A stretch of 44,850 nt of DNA, from IMG/VR virus record IMGVR_UViG_3300042756_000237. One strand, written 5' to 3'. Under the pieces are notes generated by a model, which saw only the letters and a list, made by a program, of their open reading frames with translations, did no database searches and was not told where the DNA came from. This document shows positions 6,348-21,603 of this stretch, piece after piece; position 1 is the first letter of the stretch; each line of letters opens with the position of its first letter. The position numbers and the translations under genes were made by a program. Source of the DNA: a virus.

Positions 6348-6622
6348 TAAAGTCAGTCAGAATAAAGTTTGAAAAAATACTATGTGACACGGGTAAGGCA
6401 ATACTTATCCGTGTCGATGGTATCGAACATTGGATTCCAAAAAAACTGTGCCGAAATTTAATTATAAACAGTAAACTTGGTGGAAACGTTTGTGTTCCTG
6501 TTTTTAAAGCAGAAGAATTGGGATTAAATATTGACGACTGCAAACCTGATATAGAAATCATACACCACATTCCAGAAGAAATAAATCAAGAAATCAAGCA
6601 CGATGCAAACCTTTTTAAATAG
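6344..6622 (+). CDS. Hypothetical protein
   Basis: 92-aa ORF with an ATGA overlap to the upstream gene. Confidence 0.6.
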   Translation: MIKSVRIKFEKILCDTGKAILIRVDGIEHWIPKKLCRNLIINSKLGGNVCVPVFKAEELGLNIDDCKPDIEIIHHIPEEINQEIKHDANLFK

Positions 6623-7109
6623 TCAAAAAAAAGCCGTTAAAAAGCTTTCTGCTGTGAAATGTGGGGCTTTGTTTATGGAGGCAGGAACAGGCAAAACCCG
6701 TTCCGCATTAGAGCTAATAAGGAATACTGATACAGATTACATTCTTTGGCTTACGCCTTTTCAAACAAAGAAAAACCTTCAAAAAGAAATAGATAAATGG
6801 GGTGGATTAGACTGTGATATTGTCGGGATTGAAAGCCTGCAAAATAGCGATAGAATTTACTTGGATTGCCTGAATAGCCTTTTAAAGTTCAAAAAAGCAA
6901 CCATTGTCGTAGATGAAAGCTTGCTGATAAAAAACAACACGGCAAAACGCACAAACAGGATTTTAGAACTATCAAAACACAGCGAATACAGGCTTATATT
7001 GAATGGTACACCTCTTTCGCGAAACCTCTTAGATTTATGGGCGCAAATACAGTTTTTAAGCCCGAAAATACTAGACATGGATGAAGCAATTATAAATAAA
7101 TTAATATGA
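6603..7109 (+). CDS. SNF2-family helicase N-terminal lobe only (truncated or stand-alone)
   Basis: Motif I is EAGTGKT, motif II is VVDESLLIKN, and the LILNGTPLSRNLLDLWAQIQFL block is present. The ORF stops at 168 aa with no RecA2 lobe. Confidence 0.65.
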   Translation: MQTFLNSQKKAVKKLSAVKCGALFMEAGTGKTRSALELIRNTDTDYILWLTPFQTKKNLQKEIDKWGGLDCDIVGIESLQNSDRIYLDCLNSLLKFKKATIVVDESLLIKNNTAKRTNRILELSKHSEYRLILNGTPLSRNLLDLWAQIQFLSPKILDMDEAIINKLI

Positions 7110-15799: not shown

Positions 15800-16150
15800 A
15801 TGAAAAAACAGAAAAATTCCAGCCTCAAAAATGGCAAAATAGCTATGATGTTTGGGGGAGATATTGAAAGATGTAGAACGCTTTGCGGCAACGACTGGAG
15901 AGCTGATTCAGAATCATTCACAGACGGTAGCTGTGTATTTCATTACCAACACGGAACACCATCGCTTACGGTGGTATATTACAATGCGAATCTAATGCCT
16001 GTGTACGATGAATCCCAAATCATGACCGAAGCAGAGGAAGCACATGAGGTTAAGCGCTTTAAAGAAAAGCTAATGGCAACCCTGTATTTGATAGTGGGTA
16101 TGGCTTTTATTGGGTTGGGTTGGTTGATAGCTAAAGGTTGTGCATCGTGA
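15800..16150 (+). CDS. Hypothetical protein with a C-terminal TM anchor
   Basis: 116-aa ORF with the hydrophobic tail LYLIVGMAFIGLGWLIA. Confidence 0.6.
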   Translation: MKKQKNSSLKNGKIAMMFGGDIERCRTLCGNDWRADSESFTDGSCVFHYQHGTPSLTVVYYNANLMPVYDESQIMTEAEEAHEVKRFKEKLMATLYLIVGMAFIGLGWLIAKGCAS

Positions 16151-16286
16151 ACATCTTACTAACTCATTTCATCCATTGTACGCATTGTAAATGGATTGAG
16201 CAAAAACAGAATCCCGAAGTTATTAGAATTTCGTTTGACCGCGAATTATACGAACGAATTTTGCTTGCTAAGTCGAAATAGTTTAG

Positions 16287-16294
16287 TATATTTG
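16287..16294 (+). promoter_or_regulatory. -7 box TATATTTG inside the 14-nt block TTAGTATATTTGTA
   Basis: The same 14-mer recurs at 19854-19867. Confidence 0.55.
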
Positions 16295-16400
16295 TAGGCC
16301 GTCCATTACCGGCATGAAAAAGCTTAGGTTAGATTTATTTAACCCGAATGCCTCAATTTGAAAGTAATGGTTCAGATTGGGGCATTTTAAATTTTATAGA

Positions 16401-18590
16401 ATGGAATATCAAGAATTTTTACAAACAAAAGAAAAATCATTTATCGAAAGTGGTTTTGAAATTAAAGAATCCCAATTAAACACATTACTCAAAGACTTTC
16501 AAAAATATGCCGTGAAAACTGCATTGTCAAAAGGTCGATTTGCCTTGTTTTTTGATTGCGGATTAGGAAAAACATTTTGTCAATTGGAATGGGCAAACCA
16601 AGTAAGTAAAAAAACAGGGCAAAAGGTAATTATACTTGCTCCGCTTGCTGTTGTTGAACAAACTAAAAGAGAAAATGTTAAATTCAATATCGGCATAGAT
16701 TTCTTTGATATTGATAACTTTGAGCAACTTAAAAACATTGACACATCTATTTATTCAGGCGTTGTATTAGATGAGAGTAGCATTTTAAAAGGTCGGGATG
16801 GTAAGCTATCAAACTACATAATCGAAGCTTTTAAATCAACCCCGTATAAACTTTGTTGCACGGCTACACCAAGCCCAAACGACCACATGGAATTAGGGCA
16901 ACATTCTGAATTTTTGGGCGCAATGTCTTATTTGGAAATGCTTGCAATGTATTTCGTTCACGATGGAGGCGAAACAAGTAAATGGAGGTTGAGAAAACAC
17001 GCGCAAGATCCATTTTGGAAATACGTATCGAGTTGGTCAATGGCAATCGATAATCCGGCAACACTCGGATTCGATGGCGATGGTTATTTTTTACCTGAAA
17101 TCGAATACATTGAACATATTATTCCGGTTCAAAATGATAGTGGAAATTTGTTTGGTGATGTATCAGTAAGCGCAACCGATTTACACAAAGATTTAAGTAA
17201 GTCATTTAATTTACGTATTCAAAAAACAGTTGAGTTAGTAAATTCAAACGAAAATCAATGGATTGTTTGGGGATTAAAAAATGACGAAACAGATGCGATT
17301 TGTAAATTATTGCCCGATTCTAAAAACGTTCAGGGTTCGGATAAACCGGAAATAAAAGCCAAAAATTTAAACGATTTCGGAGATTCTGAATTTAAAACAT
17401 TGATTACAAAGACCTCAATTGCATCATTCGGGATGAACTACCAACAATGCAATCAAATGGTTTTTATGTCTTATGATTTTAAGTTTGAGGCATTTTATCA
17501 AGCTGTAAGACGTTGTTACAGGTTTGGGCAAAAGAACAAAGTAACCGTACATATTTTGGTGCCGGAAAGTCAAATAAATGTACGTGCCACAATTTTAGAA
17601 AAGGAAAAACAGCATTTTGAAAGAATATCCGAAATGTCGAAATATTCCACAGAAACTAATTACAAAAAATCTAAATCAAAATTTACCGTGAAAAGCAAAG
17701 AAGTAAAAACAGAAGATTACCATTTATTAAACGGTGATTGCGTGCAGGAATCAAAAAAAATAGCTGACAATTCAGCCGGATTGTGTGTTTTTAGCCCTCC
17801 ATTCGCTGAACTTTATGTATATTCAGATAAAGCGGAAGATATGGGAAACGTAGCCAACTACAAGCAATTTGAGCAGCATTTTAAATTCTTAATCCCGGAA
17901 ATAAAAAGGATTTTGCAGCCGGGCAGAATTTGCGCTATTCATTGTATGGATTTACCAATTCAAAAAGGAAAAGAGGGCTATATCGGGCTTCGTGATTTTT
18001 CTGGAATGTTGATTGATTGGTTTCAAGAACAAGGATTTGTTTACCATTCGCGCACAACAATTTGGAAAAATCCGGTTACTGAAATGCAACGGACAAAAGC
18101 ACTCGGATTGCTTCATAAAACCATAAAAAAAGACAGTTCAATGTCGCGCGTTGGGATTCCTGATTATGTTCTATTTTTCCGAAATGAGGGCGAAAATTTA
18201 ACACCTATTGAGCACCAAGACAAAGACCATAATAAACCCAATTATTTGCCTGTTGATTTGTGGCAAAAGTACGCTTCTCCCGTATGGTTGGATATTGATT
18301 ATGGCAGAACTTTGCAATATCGTTCCGGGCGTGGTGGGAATGATGAAAAGCACATTTGCCCGTTACAACTCGATACGATTGAAAGGGTAATTCATCTTTA
18401 TTCAAATGAGGGTGAAACCGTTTTTAGTCCGTTTGGAGGTATTGGAAGCGAGGGTTTTCAGGCTATAAAAATGAACAGAAAATCAATTTCAATTGAACTC
18501 AAAGAATCGTATTTTACGATAAATGAGAAAAATCACTGCGATATTGTCAATGAGAAATCGGCAACTTTAACACTTCAATTTCCCGATTAA
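16401..18590 (+). CDS. SNF2-like helicase fused to a beta-class N4/N6 DNA methyltransferase
   Basis: N-terminal half: FFDCGLGKT, VLDESSILK, CCTATPSPND and helicase-C QAVRRCYRFGQ. C-terminal half: motif IV FSPPF comes before motif I FSPFGGIGSEG. The ATG at 16401 lies inside the TTG-initiated ORF 16377. Confidence 0.8.
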   Translation: MEYQEFLQTKEKSFIESGFEIKESQLNTLLKDFQKYAVKTALSKGRFALFFDCGLGKTFCQLEWANQVSKKTGQKVIILAPLAVVEQTKRENVKFNIGIDFFDIDNFEQLKNIDTSIYSGVVLDESSILKGRDGKLSNYIIEAFKSTPYKLCCTATPSPNDHMELGQHSEFLGAMSYLEMLAMYFVHDGGETSKWRLRKHAQDPFWKYVSSWSMAIDNPATLGFDGDGYFLPEIEYIEHIIPVQNDSGNLFGDVSVSATDLHKDLSKSFNLRIQKTVELVNSNENQWIVWGLKNDETDAICKLLPDSKNVQGSDKPEIKAKNLNDFGDSEFKTLITKTSIASFGMNYQQCNQMVFMSYDFKFEAFYQAVRRCYRFGQKNKVTVHILVPESQINVRATILEKEKQHFERISEMSKYSTETNYKKSKSKFTVKSKEVKTEDYHLLNGDCVQESKKIADNSAGLCVFSPPFAELYVYSDKAEDMGNVANYKQFEQHFKFLIPEIKRILQPGRICAIHCMDLPIQKGKEGYIGLRDFSGMLIDWFQEQGFVYHSRTTIWKNPVTEMQRTKALGLLHKTIKKDSSMSRVGIPDYVLFFRNEGENLTPIEHQDKDHNKPNYLPVDLWQKYASPVWLDIDYGRTLQYRSGRGGNDEKHICPLQLDTIERVIHLYSNEGETVFSPFGGIGSEGFQAIKMNRKSISIELKESYFTINEKNHCDIVNEKSATLTLQFPD

Positions 18591-18613
18591 GTTGAACAAA
18601 CAAAACTTGAATT

Positions 18614-19852
18614 ATGACAATAGCAAGCGATTTTAGCGGAGTAGGGGCTTTTAATCAGGCTTTAATTCGATTAGGCATTGAATATGATGAAGTATTTGCT
18701 TGTGAAATGGATAAGTTTGCCCGGAAGTCATTTATTGCGAATTACGGTGAACCAAAATATTTCCCTACCGATGTTTACGAACGTGAAATACCCGTTCAAA
18801 ACCTTGATGTTTACGTAACTTCGCCACCTTGTCAGTCGTTTTCGATTGCCGGAAAAAGACAAGGTAAACTTGATAAACGCGGAATCTTGTTTTTCAATTC
18901 ACATGAATTTATTCAGGTAAATAAACCCCGATTTTTCATCTTTGAAAACGTCAAGGGCTTGCTTTCACATGACAGACAAAACAAAGATGCTGCATACGGT
19001 AGAACATTTCAGGAATGGATTAATTTACTTGGTGGAAAATCGGTTAACGGTGTGCCTGTAATATTTCCTGATGCCGATTCCATACCTTATCACATTTATT
19101 TCAAAGTTTTGAACGGAACGGATTTCAATGTGCCTCAAAATCGGGAGCGTGTTTTTATCGTTGGTATTCGGGATGATGAAGATAATTCATTCTCCTGGCC
19201 CTGTGAGATTCCGTTGACCAAATGTTTAACTGATGTTTTGGAAGTGAATCCGGATAAGAAGTATAATTTGAGTGAGAAAATGATTGACTACTTACTAAAT
19301 CGTTCGGATAATTTCAATGGTGGTAAGGTTAATTTTAAAAGCAAAAAAGACATTGCGAGCTGCTTAAATAAATCGTCAGGGCATTTAGATATATCGGATA
19401 ATATTTTGCTTTTAGGCAATACAAATCCGTCTGGCAACGGTCAAAATGGAAATGTTTATTCAAGCGATGGAATTAGCCCAACACTATCAACAAACAAAGG
19501 TGAGGGGATAAAGATAATACAGATGAACGAAGCAAAAGAATTTGGTAGCCAACCGCGACAACATAACCGGGTATATGATTCAATTGGAATAGTGCCAACA
19601 CTAACCAAAGGAAACGCGGATGCAAATATCTACACAAACCAAGTCCTCCGCAAACTAACGCCTCTCGAATCATTCCGTTTGATGGATTTTCCTGATTCGT
19701 TTGTAGATAATTGTATCACTACCGGAATATCCGATTCTCAACTCTACAAACAAGCAGGGAACAGCGTAATTGTCGCCTGCTACGAAAAGATAATGCAACA
19801 GATTTTGAAAATTATAAATAACACACCTAAACCAATTGCCATTCCAAAATAA
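18614..19852 (+). CDS. dcm: DNA (cytosine-5)-methyltransferase
   Basis: Motif I DFSGVGAF, motif IV TSPPCQSFSIAG, motif VI ENVKGL, motif VIII QNRERVFIVG, motif X GNSV. Confidence 0.9.
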   Translation: MTIASDFSGVGAFNQALIRLGIEYDEVFACEMDKFARKSFIANYGEPKYFPTDVYEREIPVQNLDVYVTSPPCQSFSIAGKRQGKLDKRGILFFNSHEFIQVNKPRFFIFENVKGLLSHDRQNKDAAYGRTFQEWINLLGGKSVNGVPVIFPDADSIPYHIYFKVLNGTDFNVPQNRERVFIVGIRDDEDNSFSWPCEIPLTKCLTDVLEVNPDKKYNLSEKMIDYLLNRSDNFNGGKVNFKSKKDIASCLNKSSGHLDISDNILLLGNTNPSGNGQNGNVYSSDGISPTLSTNKGEGIKIIQMNEAKEFGSQPRQHNRVYDSIGIVPTLTKGNADANIYTNQVLRKLTPLESFRLMDFPDSFVDNCITTGISDSQLYKQAGNSVIVACYEKIMQQILKIINNTPKPIAIPK

Positions 19853-19856
19853 TTAG

Positions 19857-19864
19857 TATATTTG
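19857..19864 (+). promoter_or_regulatory. -7 box TATATTTG inside the second copy of TTAGTATATTTGTA
   Basis: Exact 14-nt repeat of 16283-16296. Confidence 0.55.
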
Positions 19865-20018
19865 TAAACGGGTTAGCACCCAAAACAAACATCATGCAAA
19901 AAGAAAATCACATATTATTAATATTACCCAGCGAGGTAGAAAATTTGAATGAGGCTTGTTTGTGCCTGTGCTAACATTTGAATTTTTTATTTTCGTTGGG
20001 TATTTTTTATTTTAGCTT

Positions 20019-20810
20019 ATGCCGGAAATTTATTTTAAAGCATTCATTCGAGTTGTTAAATCAATTGCAGCTAAGGATGATCATCACACAGGACTTGATA
20101 CGGTTGAGGTTATTAGAGAGCCTTTAATTGTCGCTGAATCAAAAGATATGGTTAAGCAAATTTTACTTGAAAAATACCCTCAATTCTTTCAAAATGGAAA
20201 GGTTTATGAAAAGGAAACCAAAAACGATAAAGCGCAATTTTTTTACGTTGTGATATTTCCGTTGTATCAATACGAATTAGACGAAATAAATGAGGGCGAA
20301 TGGAAATGCGATTATTGCGGTCATGTACACCAAAACAAATATATTTCAAGACCCTTAAAAAGCCAAAAGTTTGAAGGAAAAATATTTTGTGGCAATGATT
20401 ACAAAACCGGAAATGACATAGTTACATTACCTGATTGTTACGAAAATTTTAAACGCAGTTACTTTAAAAATGTAGATTTTCCTGATGATTTGAATTACAT
20501 AAATGCAGATAGTCCGGTTTATATTTACAAGATTACCGAAAAATCAACAGCTAAATGTTATGTGGGTAAAACTAAAAACGCACCGTTCTTTCGTTGGTGG
20601 AACCATTTAAAACACAGTAAAACACCGTTTGGCTTATACATTAGAGCGACAAAGTTAAGCGGTTGGAGTTTTGAGGTTTTGGAAGAGCTACCAAGTAATA
20701 TTTCAGACACCGAAGTATTTTCGATTGAATCAAAGTACATACGTGAATTTAATTCGATTGAAAACGGATATAATTCAGTAATAAGCAATAAAAATGAGCG
20801 GTTGGATTAA
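20019..20810 (+). CDS. GIY-YIG nuclease-domain protein with an N-terminal extension containing CxxC
   Basis: The C-terminal domain VYIYKI..KCYVGKT..R..H...E.KYIREF..ENGYN matches GIY-YIG. Confidence 0.7.
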   Translation: MPEIYFKAFIRVVKSIAAKDDHHTGLDTVEVIREPLIVAESKDMVKQILLEKYPQFFQNGKVYEKETKNDKAQFFYVVIFPLYQYELDEINEGEWKCDYCGHVHQNKYISRPLKSQKFEGKIFCGNDYKTGNDIVTLPDCYENFKRSYFKNVDFPDDLNYINADSPVYIYKITEKSTAKCYVGKTKNAPFFRWWNHLKHSKTPFGLYIRATKLSGWSFEVLEELPSNISDTEVFSIESKYIREFNSIENGYNSVISNKNERLD

Positions 20811-21603
20811 GTTACATAGGTCTCTTTTAAAGTGGGAATGGTGGGACGACCATAACACAACCCGACTACTCATTTATTTACTTGTAGCGGTCAACTATGA
20901 GCAAAAAAAATGGAGGGGAATGATAATCAACAAAGGTCAGTTATTTACGAGTTGGGAACACCTTTCAAATGAAACGGGCTTATCCGTGAAGCAATTAAGA
21001 AATTCAACTAAAAAATTAGAAGATTGTAAAGAAGTGGTAAGGAAGGGGCAAGCAAACGGGCAGCTTATAACCCTTGTAAAATGGGATAAACTGCAAGAAG
21101 ATGAAAAGCAAGGGGCAAGCAAAAGGGCAAGCGAGGGGCAAGCGAGGGGCAAGCGAGGGGCAAGCAAAAGGGCAACAACTAAAGAAGATAAAGAAATAGA
21201 AGAATTAAAAGAAGATAATAATATTTTACCCGAAATTTCGATTTCGGGAGTAATTCCTTCTTCTGAAAAATTCGACTTTAAAAAATCCCTTATCGAACTC
21301 GGAGTTGAAGATCAGGTTGCATCGGATTGGATGGAAGTGCGAAAAAAGAAAAAGGCAGCCAATACGCTAACGGCATTCAAAACCATAAAAAACGAAATTG
21401 AAAAATCAGGATTGACAGCAAATGAATGTATTGCGCGAGCCGCTGGCGGAAGTTGGGCAGGATTTAAAGCGGAATGGGTAAAAATTAATAATCAAAACAA
21501 TGGAACAATCACAAGAAAACAAACAGTTGACGACATACTCCGAGATCAAATCAAAGGAGTTTCAGACAGACTTGATAGGGAAATTAGCGAGCAAGGGAAT
21601 TAA
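20794..21603 (+). CDS. Putative replication initiator / replisome organiser (N-terminal wHTH)
   Basis: The N-terminus WIKLHRSLLKWEWWDD...KGQLFTSWEHLSNETGLSVKQLR is typical of phage replication-protein N-domains. The gene carries internal iterons. Confidence 0.55.
   Translation: MSGWIKLHRSLLKWEWWDDHNTTRLLIYLLVAVNYEQKKWRGMIINKGQLFTSWEHLSNETGLSVKQLRNSTKKLEDCKEVVRKGQANGQLITLVKWDKLQEDEKQGASKRASEGQARGKRGASKRATTKEDKEIEELKEDNNILPEISISGVIPSSEKFDFKKSLIELGVEDQVASDWMEVRKKKKAANTLTAFKTIKNEIEKSGLTANECIARAAGGSWAGFKAEWVKINNQNNGTITRKQTVDDILRDQIKGVSDRLDREISEQGN
21045..21176 (+). repeat. Iteron array: 7 copies of GGGCAAGC, including 3 tandem GGGGCAAGCGA
   Basis: Direct read: ggggcaagcaaac gggcagc ... ggggcaagcaaaa gggcaagcga ggggcaagcga ggggcaagcga ggggcaagcaaaa gggcaac. 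Confidence 0.85.
21229..21248 (+). promoter_or_regulatory. Perfect palindrome cccgaaat-ttcg-atttcggg after an AT-rich stretch (ori-associated)
   Basis: 8-bp arms. The preceding 21177-21228 is A/T-rich (aaagaagataaagaaatagaagaattaaaagaagataataatatttta). Confidence 0.6.

Follow-up and report, generated by a model that had tools for sequence, protein, structure and literature searches.

What might a phage do with a single gene that joins an SNF2-like ATPase to a DNA methyltransferase, and why should that gene be followed by a second methyltransferase gene, with identical 14-nucleotide blocks on either side of the pair? The question is raised by the IMG/VR virus record IMGVR_UViG_3300042756_000237, a stretch of 44,850 nucleotides which we analysed at its full length and refer to as the window. 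A sequence-only reading had taken the region as a two-methylase cassette whose flanking repeats could mark a mobile or recombining module, and had suggested that a translocase coupled to a methylase would offer broad protection from restriction. The DNA comes from an uncultured phage of Flavobacterium type (Bacteroidota), and the region forms part of its early block of replication and recombination genes. Within this region, the fused gene appears to encode a phage helicase/methylase that would use motor-carried methylation against restriction, while the repeats look like generic promoters followed by attenuating leaders. We hold this combined account with moderate confidence.

The fused gene and its two parts are placed as follows.

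16401-18590, + strand: fusion of an SNF2-like ATPase with a beta-class N6/N4 DNA methyltransferase, 729 residues (Pfam, PHROG and PDB profile matches; invariant columns)
16458-17600, + strand: two-lobe SNF2-type ATPase part, about residues 20-400 (phrog_62 match; PDB matches to SNF2 and SsoRad54; motifs I, II, III and VI invariant)
17718-18560, + strand: beta-class amino-methyltransferase part, about residues 440-720 (PF01555; motif IV SPPF ahead of motif I FGGIGS)

Every motif quoted in the sequence-only reading is present in this one open reading frame (ORF), and domain and profile matches agree with them. In the ATPase these are GLGKT (residue 54), DESS (124), TATP (154) and QAVRRCYRFGQ (367); in the methylase, SPPF (465) stands ahead of FSPFGGIGSEG (675), which is the beta-class order. 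Among Pfam families, PF01555 matches residues 469-717 (2.5e-17; 64 bits against a cut-off of 26.7) and Helicase_C lies above its cut-off (2.6e-07), while the families describing lobe 1 (ResIII, SNF2-rel_dom, DEAD) score slightly under theirs, the weak match to PF04851 (ResIII) reaching 22.0 bits against 22.5. The helicase family phrog_62 covers residues 24-432 (1.6e-53), and phrog_16 spans residues 5-725 at 2e-89, colinear over the full length. A profile of 43 homologs searched against the PDB paired lobe 1 with SsoRad54, lobe 2 with ISWI, Snf2, Sth1, Chd1 and INO80, and the C-terminal half with the beta-class methylases TTHA0409, DpnA, CcrM, RsrI and MboIIA. A PDB match of the methylase part to TTHA0409 (2zie) stands at 6e-11. 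The N-terminal half is thus an SNF2-type ATPase, and the fear that a domain search might reveal something other than an ATPase there was not borne out. One detail required correction: the 737 residues first given for the protein correspond to a TTG start at 16377, whereas the ATG at 16401, a start conserved in relatives, yields 729.

On this evidence the fusion can be assigned to a known and widespread phage kind, the "DNA helicase/methylase" of PHROG 16. When 50,697 phage records were searched by tblastn, fusion-like genes came up in 311 isolated phages, 306 of which have one place covering at least 80% of the query. The carriers infect Mycobacterium, Arthrobacter, Gordonia, Pseudomonas, Rhizobium, Synechococcus and Flavobacterium, and annotations among the matches include "DNA helicase/methylase", "DNA methylase N-4" and "SNF2 family helicase". 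Named members of PHROG 16, such as those of Arthrobacter phages BillyTP and Hestia, Mycobacterium phages Zerg and Sparky, and Synechococcus phage S-CBS3, share the order of parts, with the SNF2-like ATPase at the N terminus and the PF01555 beta-class methylase at the C terminus, and show no architectural difference from the fusion; an unannotated gene of the same kind occurs in FCV-1 and FCOV (Ficleduovirus), phages of Flavobacterium columnare. Matches are colinear over 86-100% of the length, at identities of 78% (FCV-1), 44% (S-CBS3) and 29-38% (actinophages). A library clustered at 50% identity yielded 1038 clusters of homologs at E up to 1e-30, among them longer versions and, at 43-48% identity, helicase-only proteins of about 460 residues. 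Many mycobacteriophages and Gordonia phages carry, in place of the fusion, an adjacent gene pair annotated "DNA helicase" and "DNA methylase". That the two activities are fused in some phages and encoded by adjacent genes in others supports a functional partnership between them. Literature searches returned no biochemically tested helicase-methylase of the PHROG 16 type, and to our knowledge no phage "DNA helicase/methylase" protein has been so tested.

Conservation was gauged across 81 IMG/VR loci and phage FCV-1. The Bacteroidota-phage branch of PHROG 16 stands out for its uniformity, its members being about 80% identical in genomes that are otherwise unrelated. At least 7999 of the 8000 candidates scored in a word-index search were significant homologs, and the best 120 all measured 726-743 residues with 79-82% identity to the fusion. 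Pairs drawn from 72 full-length sequences are 82% identical at the median; in this set, 413 of the 729 columns are at least 97% invariant, and block means between methylase motifs IV and I run from 0.76 to 0.98; in the 43-sequence set, the catalytic residues of both motor and methylase are all invariant. The surroundings differ sharply. Homologous pairs of flanking genes have a median identity of 42%, as against 82% for the fusion; among the window's ORFs between 9 and 26 kb, the fusion is alone in having homologs in more than 6 of the 81 loci; and comparison with the whole FCV-1 genome turned up just three shared items: the fusion (78%), a second helicase, also SNF2-like (44%), and a marginal match at 30% (E 2e-4). 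Given such unrelated genomic backgrounds, the gene must have moved among phage lineages in the past.

That movement does not appear to be recent. Identical residues use the same codon as in relatives in 53-58% of cases, and 56.9% is expected from random synonymous choice. Synonymous sites are therefore saturated, and the similarity is old and kept by purifying selection, which rules out recent horizontal transfer as the source of the 74% nucleotide and 78% protein identity to F. columnare phages. The DNA similarity to those phages ends inside the coding sequence (window positions 16416-18572). In relatives the gene keeps company with primase-helicases (about 590-750 residues), YqaJ-like exonucleases, SSB-like and Erf/RecT-like proteins and DnaD-like initiators; in the window it has an HD phosphohydrolase gene upstream, and a GIY-YIG gene and an O/DnaD-like initiator gene downstream. 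This replication/recombination setting, coupled with the strong constraint, makes the fusion look like a constrained core early gene and not part of an accessory island. A compositional island was considered and rejected, since the G+C content of both methylase genes, overall and at third codon positions, matches the rest of the genome.

The two genes that follow the fusion are of a different character.

18614-19852, + strand: Dcm-type C5-cytosine DNA methyltransferase with a variable target-recognition region, 412 residues (PF00145, TIGR00675, motifs)
20019-20810, + strand: free-standing GIY-YIG homing-endonuclease-like gene (PF01541 at 3e-05, phrog_314 at 5e-10), the first gene past the second promoter

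The C5-methyltransferase begins 23 nucleotides after the fusion and is canonical, as had been claimed: PF00145 matches at 1.5e-57 (196 bits against a cut-off of 22), TIGR00675 at 219 bits (cut-off 100.65), and all the Dcm-type hallmarks are present (FSGVG, PCQ, ENV, QNRER, GNSV). Its N-terminal catalytic part matches M.HhaI at 1.8e-31. It resembles enzymes of the M.HhaI type (Dcm family) in every hallmark motif and is unlike every close homolog in its target-recognition region, so its specificity cannot be named. Many database homologs align over only 73% of the length, with an identity of about 70%, an extent which indicates that the target-recognition region has been exchanged and suggests, from these alignments, recognition-domain swapping among phage C5-methylases. 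The identity of about 70% falls on residues 1-250; the target-recognition part of the homologs is unrelated or weakly related.

Examination of gene neighbourhoods removed the basis for a two-methylase cassette. Homologs of the C5-methyltransferase accompany the fusion in 4 of the 81 loci, 1.4-4 kb away, on either side, never adjacent, and at 28-69% identity; in FCV-1, too, the fusion has no C5-methyltransferase gene beside it. A single homolog of the GIY-YIG gene (59% identity) was found, upstream of the fusion in locus L044 and without a leader. Both genes thus appear, from their distribution, to be separate and patchily distributed accessory genes, and the juxtaposition of fusion and C5-methyltransferase seems specific to the window phage, with no sign of a conserved two-methylase cassette.

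The repeats that prompted the cassette proposal are better accounted for as promoters.

16283-16296, + strand: first copy of the promoter block, with its -7 box TATATTTG at 16287-16294 and TTG 19 nucleotides upstream
19853-19866, + strand: second copy, with its -7 box at 19857-19864 and TTG 18 nucleotides upstream; it belongs to the unit of the GIY-YIG gene

The window contains exactly two exact copies of the 14-mer TTAGTATATTTGTA, as reported, although the second starts at 19853 and not at 19854. The sigma-A consensus of Bacteroidota, known from the Bacteroides and Flavobacterium promoter literature, consists of a -7 box TAnnTTTG with TTG about 19 nucleotides upstream. TAnnTTTG boxes occur at 15 intergenic sites in the window, nine of them as TATATTTG, and their flanks follow an extended preference, being T-rich before the box with TA or CA after it. 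With position frequencies taken from 35 such promoters, the probability that two are identical over 14 positions is about 9e-4, so that about 0.1 identical pairs are expected among the 105 pairs formed by the window's 15 promoters. A scan for sigma-70 promoters gave no signal (22 sites in the window, 22.4 in shuffles). We also considered the 14-mers as insertion scars and rejected this, given the match to the promoter consensus and the expected number of identical pairs. The two 14-mers are thus predicted to be ordinary promoters of host type, generic in this phage. The sequence-only reading had itself allowed that the 14-mer might turn out to be a generic promoter found at other loci; this is what the window holds, and the idea that the repeats mark a mobile or recombining module falls with it.

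Each promoter is followed by a leader.

16297-16400, + strand: leader RNA of the fusion gene, with three hairpins, P1, P2 and P3 (fold and covariation)
16298-16313, + strand: hairpin P1 of this leader, loop UCCAUUAC at 16302-09
16327-16344, + strand: hairpin P2 of this leader, from the minimum-free-energy (MFE) fold
16346-16387, + strand: terminator-like hairpin P3 of this leader, with 17 pairs, loop AGUAAUGG at 16363-70 and a U-rich tail
19867-20018, + strand: leader of the GIY-YIG gene, with a two-tier terminator-like hairpin at 19940-19986

The left leader folds at -33.1 kcal/mol (z = -3.6); UUUUAAAUUUU trails P3, and the ATG lies 13 nucleotides past that hairpin. The complementary segments on which the sequence-only reading based its long-range helices are where it placed them, on the left at 16303-09 and 16364-70 (CCAUUAC with GUAAUGG) and on the right at 19872-79 and 19968-75. 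The left pair does not form a closing helix, however: both 7-mers lie in hairpin loops of the MFE fold, and a nested closing helix, if forced, costs 13.6 kcal/mol. We therefore interpret the pairing as a loop-loop (kissing) contact with the terminator-like hairpin.

Relatives lend this contact considerable support. Among 30 distinct upstream regions with a gap of at least 70 nucleotides before the fusion, 18 contain a terminator-like hairpin, offering 14 distinct apical loops. For 13 of the 14, a perfect complement of at least 6 nucleotides occurs further 5', nearly always in the loop of a small 5' hairpin, even though the loop letters differ among relatives (ACTGGAACT, GCACTAC, GCTTCGAC, TTGCGGA, GTTGCAG, GTAAGGCA, GGTCGAA and others). 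Complements of at least 6 nucleotides were thus observed in 93% of cases, against 7.7% in cross-locus comparisons, and those of at least 7 nucleotides in 64% against 1.6%. The shared layout comprises a TAnnTTTG promoter, a 5' hairpin, an A-rich linker, a two-tier terminator-like hairpin with an apical loop complementary to the loop of the 5' hairpin, a U tract and a nearby start codon. The left leader has the same layout as these leaders of Bacteroidota phages, with a weak U tract, which suggests leaky termination. Behind these statistics are our own scripts, applied to MFE folds, and a descriptor scan controlled by cross-locus pairings and reversed loops; they are not drawn from a covariance model. 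A MAFFT alignment of 16 leaders (34% identity) misaligned the helices. A search of 16000-20200 against Rfam 15 at E up to 1 gave a spurious long non-coding RNA match only, and no published description of kissing-loop terminator leaders was found.

Across all loci, the descriptor matched 36 units on the coding strand, where the reversed-loop control gave 10; on the other strand the figures were 7 and 4. Between eight and ten matches lie directly before the fusion and ten begin about 10-500 nucleotides past its stop; the remainder lie at a greater distance in the flanking DNA or belong to loci without a placed fusion ORF. Because the same leader type stands before the fusion or just after its stop in relatives, the bracketing seen in the window is best read as early-operon punctuation. 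A promoter and a folded leader do indeed stand on both sides, as had been noted, but they delimit operons and not a module. The right leader is a variant of the kissing-loop type, with a fold less certain than that of the left leader. Its apical loop (19957-63) is complementary to 19885-91 and its internal loop (19968-75) to 19872-79, so that it differs from leaders of the left type in having its 5' partners in a stem and linker and not in a clean loop, and in pairing with both an apical and an internal loop.

Several further observations concern these leaders. Those starting about 10-500 nucleotides past the fusion stop belong to loci L015, L019, L020, L032, L046-L048, L052, L054 and L055, and in L020 and L055 the promoter box starts 1-10 nucleotides after the stop codon. 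Leaders elsewhere in the locus were seen in L002, L021, L023, L053, L063, L069 and L075. In relatives, promoters with kissing-loop leaders precede many different early genes, with loop pairs of 7-9 nucleotides that are different in every phage. A Cys-rich micro-ORF of 26 codons (19894-19974, + strand) lies inside the right leader, with its stop codon in the internal loop of the terminator-like hairpin.

How might these parts work together? SNF2-type motors translocate on duplex DNA. In the fusion, the motor would carry the methylase along phage DNA, many sites being marked quickly, and the resulting methyl marks would shield progeny DNA from host restriction. Of the functions that could be proposed for the fusion, such motor-assisted methylation as restriction evasion seems to us the most plausible, judged from its domains and their conservation. 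Each 14-mer promoter would open a transcription unit whose leader, of about 100-150 nucleotides, ends in a terminator-like hairpin; one or more loops of this hairpin would pair back onto the leader's own 5' end, and the leader probably sets the amount of transcription that reads into the gene.

The base that would be marked is suggested by motif IV. Enzymes acting on N4 of cytosine tend to have SPPY where others have DPPY, a rule illustrated by N4CMT and CcrM (PMC10406627). S465, P466, P467 and F468 are invariant in 43 homologs and agree with the N4-cytosine motif S-P-P-(Y/F), so that the earlier pointer from SPPF to N4-cytosine enzymes was reasonable and the invariant motif predicts N4-cytosine methylation by the fusion. 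The stretch between methylase motifs IV and I usually determines specificity, and its frozen state in the fusion would fit either one fixed short target or low specificity. Beta-class enzymes usually act as dimers (PMC7544214).

Two known systems combine similar activities. In the DarB-type dyad described by Iyer et al. (2017), an LPD36 domain is followed by a gamma-class NPP(Y/F) methylase and then by an SNF2 ATPase, and DarB-type proteins are very large, carry a gamma-class methylase like those of EcoKI and TaqI, and are packaged in the virion (PMC5512222). DarB of phage P1 shields phage DNA in cis from type I restriction. Like DarB, the fusion unites a DNA amino-methylase and an ATPase of the SWI2/SNF2 clade in one polypeptide, with the same proposed logic of a motor that carries a methylase. 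Unlike DarB, it places the ATPase before the methylase, has a beta-class SPPF motif and only 729 residues, and has its gene in the early replication block, outside the structural genes. Membership of the DarB-type dyad was rejected on the reversed domain order, on the position of motif IV (SPPF) before motif I and on PF01555 being the sole methylase match. Type III restriction-modification offers a looser likeness, in that a beta-class methylase works with a DNA-moving SF2 ATPase; M.EcoP15I is itself listed as class beta (PMC7544214). In type III enzymes, however, the beta-class Mod and the SF2 helicase-nuclease Res are separate subunits, whereas the fusion is a phage-encoded single chain with a motor of the SNF2 clade. 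No nuclease family appeared among the Pfam, PHROG or NCBIfam matches of the 729-residue protein, and we rejected type III membership because these matches include nothing corresponding to the PD-(D/E)xK nuclease of Res.

Several points weigh against restriction evasion by motor-carried methylation. The target base and specificity proposed for the fusion are read from one motif; its closest solved relatives (TTHA0409, DpnA, CcrM, RsrI, MboIIA) are of mixed or unknown specificity; and M.PvuII, an enzyme that forms N4-methylcytosine (m4C), is not among the best 60 matches of the PDB profile search. An AlphaFold2 model built from the 43 homologs was poor (predicted local distance difference test 60, predicted template modelling score 0.38), which we attribute to the input homologs being too alike. 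Near-universal presence and extreme conservation are, moreover, unusual for an anti-restriction gene, and an essential role in replication would fit them at least as well. A rival that builds on this last point, and that we consider unlikely although it is the strongest of those weighed here, would make the fusion mainly a replication or recombination motor, active in fork remodelling or branch migration, whose methylase marks new phage DNA for internal uses, for instance in packaging, in telling strands apart or in controlling the origin; restriction evasion would then be secondary or absent. It draws on the constant location of the fusion inside replication/recombination modules, where it is the best conserved gene (82% against the median of 42%), on the helicase-only homologs, on the many phages with separate adjacent helicase and methylase genes, and on the second SNF2-like helicase present in both the window and FCV-1. 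Yet we know of no replication role shown for the helicase clade of the fusion, and the methylase motifs are as invariant as those of the motor, which argues that methylation itself is under selection; nor are this role and restriction evasion mutually exclusive. Distinctly less probable, in our judgement, is an essential replication-coupled "hypermethylase" that would place dense m4C on all progeny DNA at one universal target, with its dose gated by the kissing-loop terminator leader, although a universal target would explain why the recognition region is frozen, at about 80-98% identity, across otherwise unrelated Bacteroidota phages.

The remaining alternatives concern the flanks. Each promoter-terminator unit could be a self-contained small-RNA gene, giving an RNA of about 90 nucleotides, closed by loop-loop pairing, that acts in trans, for example in immunity or timing. 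Every unit does come with a promoter box of its own, its terminator-like hairpin is followed by a U tract, and the same design is found ahead of many different genes. The terminator, however, always lies 4-40 nucleotides before a start codon, the downstream gene has no other evident promoter, and the weak U tract of the window hairpin may let transcription through; we regard small-RNA genes as improbable. Least credible of all is a single anti-restriction cassette, mobile or recombining, made up of both methylase genes and bounded by the 14-nucleotide repeats; we consider this proposal largely refuted. The exact 14-mers do flank both genes, the fusion does occur in otherwise unrelated phage genomes, and a GIY-YIG gene of homing type lies directly behind the second repeat. 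Yet the 14-mer is the generic promoter, with about 0.1 identical pairs expected among 15 promoters, the C5-methyltransferase is missing from 77 of the 81 related loci and adjacent to the fusion in none, saturated synonymous sites in the fusion speak against recent transfer, the DNA similarity stops within the coding sequence, and the base composition of both genes is that of the genome around them.

The import of the locus should be stated with care. An architecture already annotated in hundreds of phage genomes, and a repeat that is a generic promoter, mean little alone. Across a very large set of Bacteroidota phages, however, no other gene comes near the fusion in conservation, which makes it a practical marker gene; it is also a good first candidate for learning what a motor adds to a DNA methylase, a cultured model being available in F. 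columnare phage FCV-1. The left leader, for its part, adds about 12 independent covarying examples to a structured RNA class without an Rfam match, and leaders of this kissing-loop class punctuate operon starts on both sides of the fusion gene.

The window as a whole has the gene content of a tailed phage, with a G+C content of 36.9% and every long ORF on the + strand. Its relatives at the DNA level are F. columnare phages only, and its two matches in a collection of species genomes are contigs of a Flavobacterium and a Bacteroidetes metagenome-assembled genome. These matches, together with the TAnnTTTG promoters, make a Flavobacterium or a related member of the Bacteroidota very likely as host. 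A twin contig from an ENA metagenome (L083) is identical to the window over 14 kb apart from one 11-nucleotide unit. The difference lies in the initiator gene (20794-21603), at about 21135-21165, where exactly one GGGGCAAGCGA iteron unit is missing from the twin. The O/DnaD-like initiator is thereby frame-shifted (125 residues as called in L083, 269 in the window), and the difference reflects either copy-number variation of the in-gene iterons or an assembly slip. The second SNF2-like helicase is represented in the window by an ORF of 168 residues (6603-7109, + strand) which holds lobe 1 alone (GTGKT, VVDESLL, LNGTP); its FCV-1 homolog has 403 residues (44% identity). As the ORF stops and unrelated small ORFs then follow, the helicase gene is truncated or split. 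Lastly, the roughly 130 nucleotides ahead of the left promoter (16151-16282) have as their sole ORF a TTG-start frame of 47 residues (16138-16281, + strand) and give no folding signal (z = -0.3); this stretch is probably plain spacer.

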